The notes below the pieces were generated by a model. That model saw nothing but the letters and a program-made list of their open reading frames with translations. It was not told the origin of the DNA and made no database searches. Shown here piece by piece: positions 74-50,809 of a stretch of DNA of 50,809 nucleotides. Both the position numbers and the translations under genes were made by a program. Origin of the DNA: a virus (lineage: Duplodnaviria; Caudoviricetes); IMG/VR virus record IMGVR_UViG_3300030372_000654, positions 1 through 50,809 of that record; one strand, written 5' to 3'. The stretch's first letter is position 1. The number at the start of each line of letters is the position of its first letter.

Positions 74-303
74 GTTTGTTCCTTTCTATTTACTGCTTCC
101 TTAACCTGCTCCGGGAGCTGCTCTAAGCGTACCAGAGAATTGATCTTCCCCTGCAACCGGAACATTTCCGATTCCGATGTTGCCACCGCCAGTGCCTGTA
201 GGTCCAAGGTCTTGAGGTTGTGCAGGTGTTCCTGCAAGGCTTCCCATATTATTTGGTTGCCCGTCAAGGCTTTCAGCTTCAGAGCCAGTTGTTTGTCCAA
301 CAT
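70..303 (-). CDS. Small helical protein following the portal gene, overlapping the portal C-terminus
   Basis: 77-aa ORF with amphipathic helical pattern (RLQGKINSL); stop is coupled to the next start. Confidence 0.65.
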   Translation of the reverse strand: MLDKQLALKLKALTGNQIIWEALQEHLHNLKTLDLQALAVATSESEMFRLQGKINSLVRLEQLPEQVKEAVNRKEQT

Positions 304-2305
304 TTTGCATTCCTATGATTTGTGCCATGATAGCTGCTTCTTCAGGGTCGTTTAAAACTTCATCTGGGTCTAAGTCTAAGCTATAGGCAAGTTCACTAAT
401 GAGTTTAGAAATCTTAACAAACGGAGCAACAGCAGGATTTTGTACAGTTTGTAAGAAGGTAGTAAGTCTTTGACTTCTTACTTCTTTCTGCATCAAGCTA
501 TTAGTTCCTGTAGCTTTAACTTCTAAATCACCTTTGACATCTAGTGAGCCTTCAAAGAACTGCATGTTCCATTGGAAGAAAGCTTCTCCTAGTGGTCTTA
601 ATAAAAAGTCGTCAAGGTTTTTAACGACTGTTTTAATATTTAAACTTGATGCACCTAGTAACATTGACATACCTGAAGCAGTCCTTGTCATACTTTGTAC
701 ACCTGTTTGTCCGTGTGAATAACTAGGTATGCCTGTTTGTTCGTCTGCAAGTTGTCTAAACTTGTCAAACATCATCATGTTTTCTGGTGCAGTGTTTGGA
801 AACTTTAAACCATGTATAGCTTGTCCGGGCATTCCAGCTTGTCTTCTAAATATCTTACCCGGATATATTTCCATAGACTGTCCACCAACTAAGGCAGATT
901 CATCTACATCAAATACTAAAGACCCAGCCATTGCTAGGTTATCTACAGCCATACGTGCATGACCGTTCATAATTTGTTGAGAATCATCCATGTTCTCAGC
1001 TACACCAATACCAAAGAAGTTATAAGGATTTCTTTCATATGGGAAAGCGTGGTATGGTATTCTATAAGGAGTAAACGGATTGACCACTGCTCTTAATAAA
1101 GTATTACCACATACCCAAGCATTGACTTGAACTTCATCTAAATCATCAATATCATCTGATAGTTCTATACCGACTTCACGTGCGTACTCTGCATCCATGA
1201 TTCCCCAGTATTCAAGAACTTCAAAGTTTGTTTGATAGTCTTCATCAGCTCGTGCATCATCTTTTAAATGATACTCAAAACTTTTCTCTTCGTAATTAGC
1301 CCCCATTTGAATAGCTTCACGTATAGCATCCTCTTTAAAATAAGGCATGTTACGAAGTTGTCGAAGTTGAGATTTGTTTAGTTTGTGTCTGTGAATAACA
1401 TACTCACATTCTTCAATACTTGTAGCTGAAGGGTCTGGATAAAAATCCCAACAACTAACAAACTCAATTCTAGGTACTCTAACTTCTAAGGGGTTATAAC
1501 TTCTTTCACCATCTTCACCAGTATCCCACTTGTGAAGTTTCTTGTTAAAGTTAAATGGTCCTTTTACAATCCCTGTACCAAGTAAAGAAGATTCTAAAAG
1601 AGCACTTCTAATTTCTGATGAACCCTTTGATTCATCTATTTGATCGTGAATAAGTTTTTCCATTCTCCGTGCAGCTTTCTGTGCAGGAGAAATTTCTAAT
1701 GCGGTAGGTATTGGACTAAAGCCTTCAACTAATTGATCTTCTACTTTATCCTCAAGAGTTTCTTCAAATAGTCCTTTGTTAAATGTGGCTCCGGGTTTTA
1801 GAACTTTACCGTCACCTTCATAACCAACATCATATGGGTTGTCTATTCTATTACCAATATCGTCTGGTAATTCACCGCCACCCATTGTACTTTCAATGCC
1901 GGGTGCACCTGTTTGTGTATCTAAATGTGCATCTGCTAGTTCGCCTTCTGGGATTTTAGTTTCAGCAATACCAATTGGAAACTTACCTGTACCAAAGATT
2001 ACATCAACAAGTTGACCAAAAGCAGCAAGTACTTTTGTTTTAGTAATCTTTACAAAGATACGAGACTTCTCAGAGTCTCTAAACTTAACAGACTTGTTGT
2101 AAAGTCCTCTATAGTTTTCGTAAGCTTTTAACCAGCGTGATTCATCAGAACGTCTAGCATCTTCTGATACTGCAAATCTTGATTTAATAATACCAACAAG
2201 ATTAGTTCTTTGTTCTAACTCAAGAGCAAGTTCTTTACCAGCTTCACCTTCTACGTCTTGATATAAATTATCAGCGTTTAAAAATGTATTTTCTTGTTCT
2301 GCCAT
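101..2305 (-). CDS. Portal protein
   Basis: 734 aa directly downstream of terL; portal-like motifs GTGIVKGP, DFYPDP, FFGIGVAE, RTASGMSML. Confidence 0.9.
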   Translation of the reverse strand: MAEQENTFLNADNLYQDVEGEAGKELALELEQRTNLVGIIKSRFAVSEDARRSDESRWLKAYENYRGLYNKSVKFRDSEKSRIFVKITKTKVLAAFGQLVDVIFGTGKFPIGIAETKIPEGELADAHLDTQTGAPGIESTMGGGELPDDIGNRIDNPYDVGYEGDGKVLKPGATFNKGLFEETLEDKVEDQLVEGFSPIPTALEISPAQKAARRMEKLIHDQIDESKGSSEIRSALLESSLLGTGIVKGPFNFNKKLHKWDTGEDGERSYNPLEVRVPRIEFVSCWDFYPDPSATSIEECEYVIHRHKLNKSQLRQLRNMPYFKEDAIREAIQMGANYEEKSFEYHLKDDARADEDYQTNFEVLEYWGIMDAEYAREVGIELSDDIDDLDEVQVNAWVCGNTLLRAVVNPFTPYRIPYHAFPYERNPYNFFGIGVAENMDDSQQIMNGHARMAVDNLAMAGSLVFDVDESALVGGQSMEIYPGKIFRRQAGMPGQAIHGLKFPNTAPENMMMFDKFRQLADEQTGIPSYSHGQTGVQSMTRTASGMSMLLGASSLNIKTVVKNLDDFLLRPLGEAFFQWNMQFFEGSLDVKGDLEVKATGTNSLMQKEVRSQRLTTFLQTVQNPAVAPFVKISKLISELAYSLDLDPDEVLNDPEEAAIMAQIIGMQNVGQTTGSEAESLDGQPNNMGSLAGTPAQPQDLGPTGTGGGNIGIGNVPVAGEDQFSGTLRAAPGAG

Positions 2306-2310
2306 AAACT

Positions 2311-3969
2311 TTAATATCCAAATGTAGAATCAGCCGGTTGATGGATATCTGCTTTTAATCCTCTCAACTGATCGAATGTACTTACCATTCGTGGTCTACT
2401 CATTATCATATAACGCAATGCATCATATGCGTGATCGGAAGCATGTGTATCCACATCCTCCGGATTATTCTTTGATAATGGTATAGACTGTAATTCTCTT
2501 ATTAAGTTAGGACATGTATTAAATATCTGTAACTTAGGTCTACCATTTTCTTGTACCTTCAAGAACTCATGTATCTGGATTTTACCTTGTATTCTATTCT
2601 TATCAGCAGGTCTAAGCTTATGTCCTGCCCGTACAAGAGCTTCTCCAACAGTAGGTCCTGTAGTACCTGTTCTTGCCCAAGCTGCTGTATCCAGTACACC
2701 AGAGACCGAGTAAGGGTCTTCTAGTTCCATACTTGTTATTATACTACCTAATTCTTCTCCTGTCAAGCCTTTTTTGTATAATTCTCTATAAATTATTAAA
2801 GTTCCGTCATTTTGATCCATTATTCCCCATAAACAACAGGATTCTGCAGCGTATCCATAGTCAACTGCTTTAACTCTTTCCCAGTGTAAAGGTAGTTCAA
2901 ATGGAGTAATAACATGATGCATAGGGTCAAACTCTACAAAAGCTGCACCTTCTGCTACATCCCAGTTACCTTCAAGTAGCTGTCTACGTTGAATCGGTGG
3001 TAAAGATTTAAGCATCTGCTCATAAACACCATCTTCTGCAAGGTATGGGTTATCAGCTAATTTAGCAGGAATAAACTTACGTGTAAGACCATCACCGCCT
3101 TGAAAAGATTTATTATGTTCGGATGGTTCTATATATCTTTTCTTTACCCAATGTGAACCAACACCACCCGGGTTAGCAGTACAGCGAAGGTATGTTTGTA
3201 TTTCTGGGTCAGTTGTACGAAGACGAGAAGCTAGATAGTTCCAACTAAACTCTGTAGGTAAATGGGTAATCTCATCAAAGCCTATCCAAGAATATGCTTG
3301 TCCTTGATATCTGTAGACATCAGCATCTCTCTCAAGGAATCCAAACTCAACCTTTGCACCGGAGGGAAAGTTCCAAAGTTTTTCTACTTCTCTAAACTTT
3401 GCACCGGGAAAGGCTTGTGGATATAACTCACGAGACTTATCAATCATCTCACGAAGTTCTGGCATAGACCGTCTAAGGATTAAAGCACGGTGAGCTTTCT
3501 TGTGACAATACCTTAGTGGGTCTACAATCATGGCAAAAGATTTACCACCACCAGCAGCTCCACCATACAATACATCTTTTTCACCGGCAGCAAGGAAGTC
3601 TGTCTGTGGACCTTCGTTAGCGTGGAATAATACTTTGTGATTGTCTAGATTTTCTTTGACAGCTTTTGGAAGTGTGTCAAGCTCATCTGTGGTGACAGGA
3701 CCTTCTACAGTCTTGTCAAGTTTTTGAATTGTTTCTTTTTGTTTTTTGAAAGACTGTCTAGCGTTGTTGAGTTTCTCTTCAAGCTTTTTAATATTACGCT
3801 GCTTACGACCGACAGTTGCCCTCGCAGCTTTGATAGCTTTCTCTGTTGAGGTTTTGGGTCTACCAGCTTTCTTCTTTGGGGTTCCATCTTTTTTTAAGAT
3901 GAAGTTACCATCATCATCCTGTAAGTAGAGATGAGGATTCCTCTCCCAGTCTTTCGTGTCGTTTACCAT
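2311..3969 (-). CDS. terL: Terminase large subunit
   Basis: Walker A YGGAAGGGKS, Walker B IGFDE, TANPGG coupling motif, RNase H-like nuclease motifs VDYGY and DHAYDALRY. Confidence 0.95.
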   Translation of the reverse strand: MVNDTKDWERNPHLYLQDDDGNFILKKDGTPKKKAGRPKTSTEKAIKAARATVGRKQRNIKKLEEKLNNARQSFKKQKETIQKLDKTVEGPVTTDELDTLPKAVKENLDNHKVLFHANEGPQTDFLAAGEKDVLYGGAAGGGKSFAMIVDPLRYCHKKAHRALILRRSMPELREMIDKSRELYPQAFPGAKFREVEKLWNFPSGAKVEFGFLERDADVYRYQGQAYSWIGFDEITHLPTEFSWNYLASRLRTTDPEIQTYLRCTANPGGVGSHWVKKRYIEPSEHNKSFQGGDGLTRKFIPAKLADNPYLAEDGVYEQMLKSLPPIQRRQLLEGNWDVAEGAAFVEFDPMHHVITPFELPLHWERVKAVDYGYAAESCCLWGIMDQNDGTLIIYRELYKKGLTGEELGSIITSMELEDPYSVSGVLDTAAWARTGTTGPTVGEALVRAGHKLRPADKNRIQGKIQIHEFLKVQENGRPKLQIFNTCPNLIRELQSIPLSKNNPEDVDTHASDHAYDALRYMIMSRPRMVSTFDQLRGLKADIHQPADSTFGY

Positions 3970-27137: not shown

Positions 27138-27453
27138 CTACAACAACAGATATTAAACCTGATTGTTCCATTGTAGGATTGTCTAGTCCCATAAACCAAA
27201 ATGTGGTATAATATAATAAATACATGTAAACACTTAAAAAAGCTCGAGGTATAATCCTCCAGCTATCTACAGCTTGTGCTACAAATATTAATTTTTGATA
27301 AGGGTTATCATTCTTAGTATCTTCTAACTCTCTTATCCTATCTTTTAATTCTGACTTTTCTTGTAGCAAAGCCATGAATTTATTAAGGTCAATTTCTACC
27401 TCATTTCTATCCATGTCGCCACTAAAGCCACCCATCATATTATTGTTTTGCAT
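27073..27453 (-). CDS. Two-TM membrane protein, holin-like candidate
   Basis: DSWRIIPR followed by two hydrophobic helices. Confidence 0.65.
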   Translation of the reverse strand: MQNNNMMGGFSGDMDRNEVEIDLNKFMALLQEKSELKDRIRELEDTKNDNPYQKLIFVAQAVDSWRIIPRAFLSVYMYLLYYTTFWFMGLDNPTMEQSGLISVVVGAGAAWFGLYTSTSKKPGGDK

Positions 27454-27464
27454 AATGCCCTCTA

Positions 27465-27896
27465 TTATTTTTTAACTAAACTACCACCAAAGTACATGCC
27501 TATAATAGCTGATACTAAGTTAGTATCTAGTTGCGTAATTACCAAGCCTTTAAATGTTATCCATTCAAAAACTTCTCTCCCTTCTGTTAAAAATAAAAAT
27601 CCCGGATTAAATACAGTATAACCTACTGTTACATCTACATCTGGATAGTATACTGCTACTAGTTTAGGCAGTATAACAATTGCAAAGATAGATGATAAGG
27701 CAATGATACGTCTTGTCCATTGAAACCCTACATTATCCACGTTTCTTGCAGATTCAATTGCTTCTAATTGAAATTTACCACGAGTAATTAAAAGCTCTTG
27801 TTCTTTTTGTTTAGCTTTTAATCTTTGTGACCACAGACTTAGCATACTACTAATTAAAGTAGACCCAAGCATGGTTATAATTTCAAATGGAAACAT
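27465..27896 (-). CDS. Membrane protein, holin candidate
   Basis: WTRR then a TM helix; IIGMYFG C-terminus; close to the endolysin. Confidence 0.65.
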   Translation of the reverse strand: MFPFEIITMLGSTLISSMLSLWSQRLKAKQKEQELLITRGKFQLEAIESARNVDNVGFQWTRRIIALSSIFAIVILPKLVAVYYPDVDVTVGYTVFNPGFLFLTEGREVFEWITFKGLVITQLDTNLVSAIIGMYFGGSLVKK

Positions 27897-48185: not shown

Positions 48186-49160
48186 TTAGTCAATTCCGTA
48201 GAAAGCACCTACGATTGCTTCGTCTCTAAGTACTTTCGCACCATAAACATGCAATCCTCTTACAATATCACCGAAAGAACTAGGGTCTCTAAGGACCTCA
48301 GTTGATGTTATTGATTGAGCAGTAGCTGTAGATGAAATATGTCCAGCCAAACATTTACCAGCAGCATTAGATGTTGCAGCAATGTTGTTTGATTTGTACA
48401 TGTTAAATCCACGTAGTTTTCCACTTGATACTAAACCATTTCTGATTGAGCCTTGTCCTGCGTTGTAGTCTACAGACAACAATTTAGAACTAGATTGTCC
48501 TAGAACTTCATAGAAATCAGGACTTGCAACAAACCAACGACCTTCTTCAGGTACGTTCTGTTCGTCTAATAGTCTTGACATTCTACCCATAAGGTCTAGA
48601 GGGTCATGTTCGTTAGAATCAAAACCTATATCTATATTACCTGTACCGTCAAAAGTTCCAGCAGCTAAATCAGTAGCGTTGTCAGAACCTAAAACATGGT
48701 TAGGTGATGAAGCAGACAATCCTGCAAACATAACAGCTAATATAGCAGCATCATATGAATCTTTCAATGCATATGCAGCAGAGCTTGAAGCTACTTCTTT
48801 GAAGTTGACGTGTGACATTTTAGTCTCAATATCATCTACGATGAATTTGAAAGCTTTGGCACTATCAACAACCAAAGTAAGTTCTTGGTCTGTTAGTTTT
48901 GTAGCAGTAGTATCGCTACCTCTTGTGTAATCTGACACAGAGATAACGGGTTCTTTGATAATCTTTACAGAGTCTCCAAAAGCAGTAATTTCACCAGCAT
49001 AGTCGGTGTTAGTAATAGCTTCAACAACAGACGATTTTCTAAAAAAGTTTAAAACCTTTTTAGAGTAAACCGAAGGTAAAAAGAAACTATTAGTCTGTCC
49101 GCTTACAGAGTTTGCAAAGTTAGCATCAGTATCAGTTGAGGGTTCAAAAAATTGAGCCAT
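48186..49160 (-). CDS. Major capsid protein
   Basis: F.P.VYS.KVL..F, ITNTDY.GEI..FGD.VKI, F.VDDIE, F.DIVRGLHVYG.KVLR. Confidence 0.92.
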   Translation of the reverse strand: MAQFFEPSTDTDANFANSVSGQTNSFFLPSVYSKKVLNFFRKSSVVEAITNTDYAGEITAFGDSVKIIKEPVISVSDYTRGSDTTATKLTDQELTLVVDSAKAFKFIVDDIETKMSHVNFKEVASSSAAYALKDSYDAAILAVMFAGLSASSPNHVLGSDNATDLAAGTFDGTGNIDIGFDSNEHDPLDLMGRMSRLLDEQNVPEEGRWFVASPDFYEVLGQSSSKLLSVDYNAGQGSIRNGLVSSGKLRGFNMYKSNNIAATSNAAGKCLAGHISSTATAQSITSTEVLRDPSSFGDIVRGLHVYGAKVLRDEAIVGAFYGID

Positions 49161-49195: not shown

Positions 49196-50053
49196 TTATT
49201 TTGCAATCCTGCCTTCTGACATGGCTGTACTTATTTCAGCTTCGTACTTATCAAATTCAGCCATAGACATTTTTGCAATTTCCCTTTCAGTCCAAACTTT
49301 CTCTTGCTTCGGTTCTACACTAGTTGTTTTAGTGGAAACCATGTCAGCAGCAGATTTTTTGGACTGCTTAGAATTTGACTTCTTAGGTACATCCATACCA
49401 ATATCTTTCTTAAACAAATCTAAAGCTCTTGAAGCTAGATCAGCATCGTCAGCGTTATTGTATACCCAATCTTGGATAGACTTTGGCTGCTCTTTAGCCC
49501 AACCATGAAAATCATCGCTGTTGCGAATATCTTCAAAATCAGGATGCTTATCCATCAATCGCTTTTCAGCATCTTTACGAATTAACTCTTTTTCACGTTC
49601 TTGTAGTCTTTCAAGTTTCTCTCTTAAGTCTTTAGATTTCTCTTCGGACTGTAAATGAGAAACAGTTTCTACAACTTCGTAAACATCAGGATACTCTTCT
49701 CTAAACTTTTCAAGTTCTTCTGGAGACTTAGGAGCTTTATATGCAGGTCTGTTTTCAGCAGCCTGTTCTAATAACTCTTGTTCTCTAGACTTAAATTCAT
49801 TTAACTTAGAGTCATAATGCTTTTTCAAGTCATCATAGCGTTTCTTGTAGTCTGGTCGCTTATAAGGTTCGTCCTTTGGAGTCTCCTCTTTAGCTTCCTG
49901 TTCTACAGGTTCTGCTACTTTAGTTTCCGGTTTTGCTTTGGGCTTTTCGAAAAAAACTCCGTCTGCATCTTGGAAACCTATTTCGTCTTCTGTATGCCAA
50001 GGTTTGTTCATGTTGTAAGGATTGGCATTTTCCTCTTGTACTTCTGTAGTCAT
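49196..50053 (-). CDS. Capsid scaffolding protein
   Basis: Directly upstream of the capsid gene; KKRYDDL, HPDF..I..SDDFH.W, EI..A..EGRI C-terminus. Confidence 0.85.
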   Translation of the reverse strand: MTTEVQEENANPYNMNKPWHTEDEIGFQDADGVFFEKPKAKPETKVAEPVEQEAKEETPKDEPYKRPDYKKRYDDLKKHYDSKLNEFKSREQELLEQAAENRPAYKAPKSPEELEKFREEYPDVYEVVETVSHLQSEEKSKDLREKLERLQEREKELIRKDAEKRLMDKHPDFEDIRNSDDFHGWAKEQPKSIQDWVYNNADDADLASRALDLFKKDIGMDVPKKSNSKQSKKSAADMVSTKTTSVEPKQEKVWTEREIAKMSMAEFDKYEAEISTAMSEGRIAK

Positions 50054-50059
50054 ATTCTT

Positions 50060-50175
50060 CTCCTACGGGGGCTTCGTTCACAAGGTAGCTCTATGTCGAC
50101 TAGAGGGCTTGTATGTAAAGGTAGCCTTTCGGTTTATAAAATGATAGGGTGCTTATGACATAAGGTAGCCCTACC
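50060..50175 (-). promoter_or_regulatory. Structured leader of the scaffold gene with three equivalent internal loops
   Basis: Three GCUACCUU segments, each opposite AAGC(A/C)C within stems; the last abuts the SD. Confidence 0.65.
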
Positions 50176-50186
50176 GTTAAGTTTGT

Positions 50187-50809
50187 TTAGCTTCTGACGT
50201 GCCTTTGGTCAGGGTCAAGCATCATTTTAGATTTAATACCTTTTGATATTTCATCTTCATCTTCAAGACCTTTAGTACTATCTACTGTTTCTTTAACAAT
50301 GCGAACCTGTGGTTCTTTTTGTTCTTCAACAGGTAGTTCTACTCTTTCTTCCGGCTCACCACCATTAGCTAAACCTTGCCTTTCATCTGCTTTCATTTCT
50401 GCATCTTTCATCATTGCCATTAAATTATCAGCTCCGATTTCTTCTACAGCTTTCGCAGTAAAGACAAACTCTCCATCAGATAACCTTGCAGGTATACTGT
50501 CAGAGACTCCTGAACCCGGACCTTCAACAGGACCAGACCCAGCAAATTCTTGTGCAATGTCAATAACTTTATCGAATATTTCGCTAAGTCTGTCATTGCC
50601 TTGTAACATTTCCATTAGATAATCTTCTTCTTCGTTATCTAATGCTTCATCTAATATAAAATCTAAGTATTCATCTTCCATTTCATCGTCTGGAAGCATG
50701 TCTTCTTCTTGTTCTTCAGGCATTGAATCTTGTTTCATTTCTTTTTTTGGTGCAATCATAATAGCTACACCGCCTTCTTCATAGCCCATACGTTCAACAA
50801 CTTCAGGTG
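50187..50809 (-). CDS. Acidic virion-associated protein, 5' end truncated by the window edge
   Basis: Frame open to the edge (..PEVVERMGYEEGG); GPGSGVSDSIPARLSDGEFVFTAKAV motif. Confidence 0.75.
   Translation of the reverse strand, partial: PEVVERMGYEEGGVAIMIAPKKEMKQDSMPEEQEEDMLPDDEMEDEYLDFILDEALDNEEEDYLMEMLQGNDRLSEIFDKVIDIAQEFAGSGPVEGPGSGVSDSIPARLSDGEFVFTAKAVEEIGADNLMAMMKDAEMKADERQGLANGGEPEERVELPVEEQKEPQVRIVKETVDSTKGLEDEDEISKGIKSKMMLDPDQRHVRS

Follow-up and report, generated by a model that had tools for sequence, protein, structure and literature searches.

Introduction

Autoregulation of the scaffolding protein of phage P22 was reportedly described in 1985 by Wyckoff and Casjens and by Casjens and Adams, and a defined P22 scaffold operator was not found in the literature that we searched. 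Translational operators in general, such as the coat hairpins of RNA phages, those of T4 RegA and the leaders of r-protein mRNAs, are small RNA structures at the ribosome-binding site in which unpaired letters are fixed and the helix is variable. In T7, the RNase III sites between late genes are intercistronic hairpins of irregular shape whose internal loop is asymmetric; a site of this type has about two helix turns and an internal loop, and is cut at a defined bond. Two other RNAs act through loop-loop pairing: the retroviral dimerisation initiation site, whose apical loop contains 6 self-complementary nt and forms a kissing loop, and the packaging RNA of phi29, a separate transcript that multimerises as two different loops pair into a ring.

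A passage of a preprint (bioRxiv 10.1101/2022.12.13.520362) implicates the N-terminus of the P22 scaffolding protein in autoregulation at the level of translation, and an interaction between the P22 portal and mRNA, proposed in 1990, is mentioned in the introduction of PMC5529062. HMO-2011-type phages are described in the abstract of PMC9038755 as a dominant, widely distributed marine virus group; a term search of that paper gave no mention of promoters, intergenic regions or RNA secondary structure.

The DNA analyzed here is an IMG/VR virus record of 50,809 bases with a completeness rating of 98%, and the whole of this stretch is called the window. A preliminary description, made from its letters, had proposed that the leader of a scaffold gene carries three copies of one asymmetric internal loop and serves as a cis-regulatory RNA for capsid assembly.

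Results

A structured leader precedes a scaffold-like gene

Past the end of the linear record, the minus strand reads from a 200-aa ORF to the 285-aa phrog_13678 protein, the major head protein and the tail genes, such that the scaffold-like gene has the portal side on one flank and the gene of the major head protein on the other. The relevant genes are as follows.

101-2305, minus strand: portal
2311-3969, minus strand: large terminase
48186-49160, minus strand: major head protein (phrog_267 match)
49196-50053, minus strand: scaffold-like protein, 285 aa (phrog_13678 match, E 4.5e-77)
50187-50789, minus strand: upstream ORF, 200 aa, from the ORF list; its stop codon lies 11 nt 5′ of hairpin H1

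The plus strand carries a primase-helicase, a DNA polymerase A and a ribonucleotide reductase. The family phrog_13678 is itself of unknown function. Relatives of the 285-aa protein were found in 26 phage records, including 11 Roseobacter phage records, the Pelagibacter phages HTVC115P, 104P, 103P and 033P and the Puniceispirillum phage HMO-2011, and in all isolate records opened the homologous gene lies directly 5′ of a capsid or 'p22 coat protein' gene. A single-protein search of a genome collection gave one partial match of 34 residues, in a Nitrospirae MAG. Because the 285-aa protein has no match above the curated cut-off in Pfam, which also gave no RNA-binding domain, the name 'scaffold' is taken from position and composition: its place in the gene order and its charged, coiled composition indicate that this is probably the scaffold gene. 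The earlier designation as a scaffold-gene leader thus stands as regards a structured, strand-specific RNA ahead of a scaffold-like gene, and the gene name remains one of position and composition, not of a named family. Among relatives, the upstream 200-aa ORF differs in its C-terminus and in its identity while the element stays, and this ORF is therefore not the conserved partner of the element.

The leader occupies positions 50068-50175 on the minus strand and consists of a hairpin, H1, and a nested hairpin, H2, with three 4x2 internal loops in total.

50143..50175, minus strand: H1, with a 7-bp outer stem, a 4x2 internal loop, a 5-bp inner stem and a 3-nt loop
50165..50168, minus strand: loop strand A1 (CUAC) of module 1; partner CA at 50150-50151
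50127..50142, minus strand: A/U-rich linker, ending ACCGAAA
50068..50126, minus strand: H2, nested double module, [GG]-CUAC-[CUUU..ACAAG]-CC-[apical hairpin]-CUAC-[CUUGU..GAAG]-CC-[CC]
50121..50124, minus strand: loop strand A2 (CUAC) of the outer H2 module; partner CC at 50070-50071
50085..50088, minus strand: loop strand A3 (CUAC) of the inner, inverted H2 module; partner CC at 50106-50107
50089..50105, minus strand: apical hairpin of H2, CUCUA-GUCGACA-UAGAG; self-complementary GUCGAC at 50095-50100
50060..50065, minus strand: Shine-Dalgarno sequence (SD) UAGGAG; ATG at 50051-50053

The letters of the minus strand over 50054-50186 and the pairing of H1 and H2 are exactly as first given. In the outer part of H2, GG-CUAC-CUUU pairs with GAAG-CC-CC and encloses ACAAG-CC-CUCUA-loop-UAGAG-CUAC-CUUGU, such that the same 4x2 loop does occur three times, once inverted, as had been proposed. 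The helices amount to 12 bp in H1 and about 16 bp, in pieces, in H2. The 3′ end of H2 lies 2 nt from the SD of the scaffold-like gene, in agreement with the few nucleotides originally noted. The loop copies are also exact direct repeats, GCTACCTT-N7-AAGC, and all three zero-mismatch matches of the 50.8-kb window fall here, compared with ∼0.006 exact matches expected per window by arithmetic for the 12 fixed bases of GCTACCTT-N7-AAGC.

The minimum-free-energy fold of the leader (−28.5 kcal/mol, z = −1.12) keeps H1 and gives H2 in a shifted register, with GGCU paired to AGCC; 25 of 200 shuffles were equally stable. Since this folding energy is unremarkable, the case for the element rests on comparison.

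Covariation supports H1, the apical stem and the nested fold of H2

A scan of IMG/VR with the scaffold protein confirmed at least 598 stretches that encode it, and the best 80 were taken. The element is present in 76 of these 80 loci (the best 80 of at least 598), the four misses being loci truncated on the 5′ side. The window and 57 further distinct sequences (58 in total) were aligned with MAFFT and scored on the structure of the preliminary description. Compensatory changes were found in 12 of the 28 pairs (58-sequence alignment, from the best 80 of at least 598), and 95.5% of 1613 cells were paired in this alignment, compared with 88.7% for shuffles and 39-47% when the partners were slid. 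On four of five covariation measures, none of 500 shuffles matched the observed value; the 'further pair types' measure gives no support, having been attained by 473 of the 500. Within the 58 sequences, compensatory changes affect four of the seven pairs of the H1 outer stem and three of the five pairs of the H2 apical stem, and all pairs of the H1 inner stem covary. The middle helix of H2, ACAAG/CUUGU, is almost invariant in this set. The outermost pairs of H2 (GG/CY and CUU/AAG) are invariant in the window's clade and have no covariation support there; covariation within this clade therefore cannot test the outer part.

A metagenome pattern scan, the pattern of which fixes the CUAC of A3 and its partner CC, supplied 118 extra loci. 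With these loci included, the full H2 context was present in 169 of 198 loci, in 82 distinct forms. Across the 82 contexts, the ACAAG/CUUGU helix shows one wobble change and three compensatory doubles (AAAAG/CUUUU, UCAAG/CUUGA and ACAAA/UUUGU). These doubles connect the flank of B2 to the flank of A3, which favors the nested fold over both a tandem arrangement and the minimum-free-energy register. A tandem model of H2 (A2 with B2, A3 with B3) was rejected because of the three doubles, and the minimum-free-energy register is disfavored because CGAC and CCAC variants, found in 24 of the 82 contexts, break a pair without compensation. CCGAAA stands 5′ of the GG in 65 of the 82 distinct contexts, and CC-GAAA-GG could fold into a short hairpin with a tetraloop, in competition with the outer GG/CC pairing.

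In the 82 distinct contexts the A2 loop reads CUAC (58), CGAC (22) or CCAC (2) and its partner is always CC; the A3 loop is CUAC and its partner CC in 82 of 82, in a set partly fetched by a pattern fixing those letters. Mean identity to the window is 0.89 for H2, 0.71-0.75 for the first 300 nt of the scaffold gene and 0.65 for the 150 nt upstream. Loop letters that are fixed while the stems are free, and an H2 more conserved (0.89) than coding DNA (0.65-0.75), suggest a recognition site and not a mere helix.

The module recurs upstream of the scaffold gene in five clades

For further clades, 80 loci each were collected with the scaffold proteins of HTVC104P, HMO-2011, HTVC033P and CRP-603; each scan confirmed between 293 and about 600 relatives, of which the best 80 were used. 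The same two-stranded motif was found directly 5′ of the scaffold SD in all five clades, with one to three modules per leader in tandem or nested arrangement. The CRP-603 clade has one module; the HTVC104P, HTVC115P-like and HTVC033P clades have two in tandem; the HMO-2011 clade, Rhizobium phage RHph_N3_13 and one freshwater phage have a nested pair; and the window's clade has H1 plus a nested pair. The phages that bear the element belong to SAR11, SAR116, Roseobacter and Rhizobium host groups. This family-wide unit in one to three copies, like the loop palindrome described below, was absent from the preliminary description.

We aligned 22 equal-length modules from four clades with MAFFT, without gaps and without fitting to any structure. 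Eight of nine pairs in this alignment are compensatory, and 92.9% of its cells are paired versus 23-50% when slid. Letters G7, C8, A10, C11, C26 and C28 are the same in all 22 modules, whereas the stems on both sides differ, and the second loop position is variable (U, C or G), giving a module consensus of 5′-G CNAC Y for strand A and 5′-R CM C for strand B. A module was defined as a 4x2 loop CNAC/CM flanked by an inner stem of 4 bp or more and an outer stem of 2 bp or more. At least one such module lay no further than 130 nt from the start codon in 367 of 377 loci with enough flanking DNA in the five clades (from the best 80 per clade scan), compared with 7 of 377 reverse complements and 7 of 377 controls inside coding sequence. 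Thus the loop conservation and stem covariation by which the original proposal was to be judged are both borne out, by the invariant letters of the 22 modules and the 367 of 377 leaders in one case, and by the 12 of 28 pairs within the clade and 8 of 9 pairs across clades in the other. Judged by these alignments, the functional unit is a helix broken by an invariant 4x2 internal loop, family-wide. A kink-turn has a 3-nt bulge followed by tandem G.A pairs; the loop strands here are CNAC and CM, with neither a G nor tandem GA in or beside the loop. A likeness of the 4x2 loop to the C-loop motif is a possible lead.

Paired columns contain 107 G:U cells versus 33 A:C cells, and the element is therefore an RNA in the sense orientation of the genes. 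Both strands of the nested form read CUAC-(helix)-CC, and thus its two loops are related by a two-fold axis. In the HMO-2011 clade the nested form was found in 29 of 31 parsed combinations (the other two were misparsed), 1 of 64 leaders was unmatched, and the helix varies among UCACU/GGUGG, CUAAUC/GGUUGG and CUAACU/GGUUAG; RNAalifold alone, applied to this clade, gave the outer stem and a local GGCUA/UGGCC hairpin only, not the nested inner form. The nested loops are spaced 5-6 bp apart in the HMO-2011 clade versus about 13 nt in the window's clade, a difference that argues against one rigid dimer footprint and for independent sites. A variant hairpin, UAG-AYAC-stem-MC-CUA, lies 5′ of the SD in three sequences from gamma-proteobacterial phages (CHOED, Aeromonas 1233 and MQM1). 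The scaffold protein of Vibrio phage CHOED matched itself only in IMG/VR, and Pseudoalteromonas phage Slicky01 is without the RNA element.

The distance from the 3′ end of the last module to the ATG has a median of 18 nt (range 16-36) in the window's clade and medians of 15-21 nt in the other four, the module lying 0-9 nt 5′ of the SD; in the HTVC104P clade its outer stem overlaps the SD. A place directly 5′ of the SD of a high-copy protein would also suit an enhancer or stand-by site acting by RNA alone, through rigid presentation of the SD or base pairs between GCUACCUUGU(UA) and the 3′ region of 16S rRNA. In many relatives the A3 strand reads as a 12-nt run that would match the universal 16S primer 1492R and would then be complementary to rRNA. 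However, other clades keep only GCUAC(C/U) of this sequence, the second loop position is variable, and the 16S rRNA segment concerned is buried in the mature subunit. We consider such an enhancer very unlikely.

The module goes with the scaffold gene

A covariance model, R1, was built from the 22 modules with the window's own sequence excluded. In the window, H1 was its sole significant hit (E 5.7e-6; next hit, E 0.34), and in four of five whole isolate genomes its best hit lay just 5′ of the scaffold CDS, the nested form of HMO-2011 being missed. A pattern scan that took no account of neighboring genes gave mostly chance matches; of the 80 collected, 18 form the module structure, 16 of the 18 are followed by an ORF, and all 16 of these ORFs are scaffold homologues. 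The leader of the capsid gene was considered as another carrier of the module and rejected: in the HMO-2011 and CRP-603 clades, about 225-240 nt separate the scaffold and capsid genes and hold a different, larger conserved structure without the 4x2 loop. Since the capsid gene has its own, different leader, the module goes with the scaffold gene and not with head genes generally.

Over 49800-50809, a scan for sigma-70-consensus promoters and for terminators gave nothing on the gene strand, and no G+C-rich hairpin followed by a U run, as in an intrinsic terminator or attenuator, occurs there on that strand; the U-rich tail 3′ of H1 is missing in many relatives. By eye, TTGACA..TATAAC can be read in loci L085 and L086, where the scan missed it because it accepts only second hexamers that end in T. 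In the HMO-2011 clade, A/T-rich −10-like hexamers can likewise be read immediately ahead of the modules. RNA-library contigs cover the element in four of four runs, from libraries that may hold DNA and as contigs that show no RNA ends, strand or level. One contig stops at 50173, close to the 5′ boundary of H1, another bridges 50085-50433 into the upstream gene, and the loose contig ends at 50068-50069 and 50130 reflect only relatives that share H2.

One explanation for an intercistronic element between low-copy and high-copy head genes is RNA processing or stability, in which a double-strand or single-strand endoribonuclease of the host cuts the hairpins, as at the T7 sites, or a 5′ structure protects the message, making the scaffold message more abundant or more stable than that of the upstream portal side. 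The hairpins bear asymmetric internal loops, read-through that needs processing is plausible with no promoter or terminator on the gene strand in 49800-50809, and a universal host enzyme would suit occurrence in phages of SAR11, SAR116, Roseobacter and Rhizobium, with the variant in Vibrio and Aeromonas phages. On the other hand, invariance of loop letters in freely changing stems exceeds the known requirements of such nucleases, H1 offers a helix of only 12 bp, and the element and the upstream gene are joined in one contig, a weak point in that contigs cannot show RNA ends. Although it is the strongest of the alternatives, we regard processing or stability as unlikely.

The absence of a phage RNA polymerase among the 25 window ORFs scanned, the length of the late operon and the stem-loops with internal loops, which are also features of put RNA, would fit an antitermination RNA like that of HK022 that modifies RNA polymerase for read-through into the head genes. 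Against this, the element invariably sits at the scaffold SD, in the middle of the operon; in two clades a promoter-like element of its own precedes the next gene; and no terminator-like site was found on the gene strand within the scanned stretch, 49800-50809. Antitermination is thus a highly improbable function.

The apical loop of H2 keeps its self-complementarity as its sequence changes

Among 33 distinct apical hairpins from full H2 contexts, 30 have a palindrome of at least 6 nt in the script-defined loop, and in CUCUAUGCAUAGAG the palindrome extends over both stem and loop; the two exceptions are CCGUACA and one 17-nt loop. The cores GUCGAC, GUGCAC, UCGCGA, UGCGCA and AUGCAU represent at least four different palindromes, and no intermediate with a broken palindrome was seen among the 33 hairpins. 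The chance of such a palindrome in random loops of these lengths is 2-9% per loop. The flanks of the palindrome are asymmetric and often include an unpaired A. The other clades lack the palindrome and have tetraloops or non-palindromic loops. In the window's clade, therefore, an apical hexamer stays self-complementary through sequence change, as in kissing loops, and the shift in its identity argues for loop-loop pairing and against a sequence-specific DNA-binding protein. The palindromic loop of H2 probably lets two leaders pair loop to loop as a kissing dimer.

These results bear on the possibility that the repeats and palindrome act in DNA, as regulator sites or part of a late promoter. Three exact direct repeats with a central palindrome, and the −10-like hexamers read by eye 5′ of the HMO-2011-clade modules, are in its favor. 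However, the compensatory changes preserve pairing and not sequence, G:U cells exceed A:C cells by 107 to 33, the palindrome changes identity in a way intolerable for a sequence-specific protein, and the promoter scan of the gene strand over 49800-50809 was empty. We give a DNA-level element hardly any credence.

The palindrome also raises the possibility of an assembly-linked RNA, either a leader dimerized through the palindrome that binds portal or scaffold and couples translation to procapsid initiation, or a processed RNA like that of phi29. Self-complementarity kept through at least four hexamers, the two-fold pseudo-symmetry of the nested modules and the portal-mRNA interaction proposed for P22 in 1990 (introduction of PMC5529062) are consistent with such a role. 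On the other side, the palindrome is confined to the window's clade, the gene strand has no promoter or terminator of the element's own (sigma-70 consensus scan of 49800-50809 only), and the RNA-library contigs, which cannot show ends, give no sign of a separate RNA species. We judge an assembly-linked RNA to be rather improbable. The more specific version, in which a leader dimer presents six symmetric CNAC/CM modules that gather scaffold or portal on the message and so couple its translation to the start of the procapsid, is equally doubtful; if true, it would physically explain two puzzles of P22, the self-repression of scaffold and the proposed portal-mRNA link.

Discussion

Our tentative reading, to which we give slightly less than an even chance, is that the 5′ leader of the scaffold mRNA contains a cis-acting structured RNA that serves as a multivalent operator for a trans-acting protein. 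In all five clades the element lies beside the ribosome-binding site, where an operator is expected, and invariant loop letters within changing helices, repetition and a fixed place before the SD would fit a translational operator best. Such symmetry, together with a copy number that varies, suggests that an oligomer has several like sites here. The structure, its conservation, strand and position, its exclusive tie to this gene and the self-complementarity of the loop are shown; that a protein binds, which one it is and in which direction it acts are inferred. The 4x2 loops would be the recognition sites of an oligomeric trans-acting protein, and free scaffold protein would be the likeliest ligand, as in P22 autoregulation; excess protein on the modules would block 30S binding sterically or destabilize the mRNA, resulting in less scaffold synthesis, and in the window's clade the palindromic loop of H2 would raise the valency by pairing two leaders. 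The SD is unsequestered in most clades, and therefore the structure alone does not repress.

The only conserved partner of the element that can be named appears to be the product of its own gene. The loops never vary jointly with the scaffold protein, which therefore gives no signal of co-evolution; the scaffold alignment has no discriminating RNA-binding motif, and the invariant scaffold motif KKRY.DL is also present in Slicky01, which is without the element.

No catalogued family covers the element. Rfam 15 gave no hits in the whole window, and over 49900-50400 at E up to 10 only mir-962, on the opposite strand with 17.9 bits versus a gathering score of 70; at E up to 0.1, Rfam hits were also absent from nine loci that represent other clades. 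The novelty first suggested for the structure thus survives comparison with Rfam, and a description of the element was not found in the full-text literature searched. A covarying, uncatalogued motif ahead of one head gene would offer a mutable handle on the control of head-protein stoichiometry. Its 4x2 loop is a candidate for a new protein-recognition or tertiary RNA module, and dimerization through the loop palindrome would be unusual for a phage mRNA leader.

How, then, does this locus compare with known systems? P22 resembles it in capsid type, homologous loci being annotated 'P22 coat protein', and in the order portal side, scaffold, coat, and both P22 gene 8 and the window's scaffold-like gene are expected to need a scaffold output in step with assembly. 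The cis-element here sits at the translation start, where control of the P22 type would act. In contrast, P22 has a 13-nt gap between the portal and scaffold genes and no CNAC/CM module. The P22 precedent invoked from the outset therefore holds for the autoregulation, as reported in the passage of bioRxiv 10.1101/2022.12.13.520362, and not for the module; it is a functional precedent only.

The T7 RNase III sites share irregular hairpins with the element, but the helices here are shorter and the loop letters are invariant across host groups. The retroviral dimerisation site and the window's H2 are alike in a self-complementary 6 nt within a 7-13-nt loop, in the frequent unpaired A at its flank and in changes of its identity; the former, however, is part of a genome, whereas the latter belongs to a phage mRNA leader, occurs in one clade only and has a dimerization that is predicted. 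Both the phi29 packaging RNA and the element are phage RNAs tied to head-assembly genes with a potential for loop-loop pairing, but the element belongs to the leader of an mRNA, its single palindromic loop allows a dimer only, and it shows no link to packaging. Known translational operators use a bulge or hairpin loop, whereas the loop here is a 4x2 internal loop, repeated one to three times and nestable with two-fold symmetry. On the strength of these comparisons, the element appears to be a new RNA family of a familiar type, that of structured leaders and operators, in which the repeated symmetric 4x2 module and the covarying loop palindrome are unusual. It could supply the missing cis-element for scaffold autoregulation, which in P22 has been known since 1985 with no defined operator found in the literature searched.

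Sequences within and beside the scaffold leader

The first features considered lie in the window.

50187-50789, minus strand: 200-aa ORF between portal and scaffold
50127-50133, minus strand: linker ACCGAAA, 5′ of H2, the second hairpin of the scaffold-gene leader
50080-50089, minus strand: A3 (loop strand CUAC of the inner, inverted H2 module) with its 3′ flank; also at the equivalent position in relatives, L010 among them
27421-27466, plus strand: weak match CCAC...CC (E 2.6) to R1, the covariance model built from 22 cross-clade modules without the window's own sequence

In residues 82-141 the ORF matches (best E 2.4e-12) a segment that occurs in long PHROG families of the 'tape measure' and endolysin types, and its C-terminus diverges widely among close relatives. 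The linker is nearly invariant, with CCGAAA present in 65 of 82 contexts and CCAAAA, CCUUGA and CCGAAC among the variants found. Together with the start of H2, it could form a small tetraloop hairpin, CC-GAAA-GG, in competition with the outer GG/CC pairing of H2.

In the window, strand A3 together with its 3′ flank reads GCUACCUUGU, and many relatives have GCUACCUUGUUA there. Both sequences appear to resemble the universal 16S primer 1492R; such a likeness would imply complementarity to the 3′ region of 16S rRNA. Because distant clades retain only GCUAC(C/U) of this stretch, the likeness is probably due to chance. The R1 match on the plus strand, which is antisense to the genes of its stretch, was likewise taken as chance.

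Elements upstream of the scaffold gene in related phages

Two features were found upstream of scaffold homologues in other clades.

L168-L246, HMO-2011 clade: A/T-rich hexamers TACAAT, CACAAT and TATATT, 3-6 nt 5′ of the outer stem of the leader module
L247, L251, L252, L269 and others, HTVC033P clade: distal module GUG-CCAC-stem...stem-CC-CAC, ~60-160 nt 5′ of the scaffold start

The hexamers resemble a -10 box and are present whatever the upstream gene; no matching -35 was seen in these loci. If transcripts start there, the module would stand at the extreme 5′ end of the mRNA. The distal module is contained in the sequence that encodes the C-terminus of the upstream gene product. An inner stem of CUGAUR/UAUCAG, present in some members, encloses a ~95 nt insert of coding sequence; in others the module is a short hairpin, CUAGUCA/UGACUAG.

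The spacer between scaffold and capsid genes

Both features below lie outside the window.

L167:2371-2613, L328:2452-2675 and the corresponding interval of further HMO-2011 and CRP-603 loci: scaffold-capsid spacer
L328:2485-2520 and relatives, CRP-603 clade: 10-bp hairpin followed by UUUUU, capsid leader

In these two clades, a conserved spacer opens with TTGACA-N16-18-TATAAC, promoter-like when read by eye, and its remainder is predicted to be a large structured RNA. The RNAalifold model (12 sequences) contains 59 pairs, 15 of them with compensatory changes, and is closed by a long-range GCAAAC/GUUUGC helix. Adjoining the 3′ side of the promoter-like element in the CRP-603 clade is the hairpin GCAUAUACAC/GUGUGUAUGC, which with its UUUUU looks like an intrinsic terminator or attenuator where the capsid leader begins. 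The spacer RNA had no Rfam match in loci L085 and L086, and could represent a second leader RNA not yet catalogued, serving the capsid gene. The genes are separated by 225-240 nt in the HMO-2011 and CRP-603 clades, in contrast to only ~29 nt in the window's own clade.
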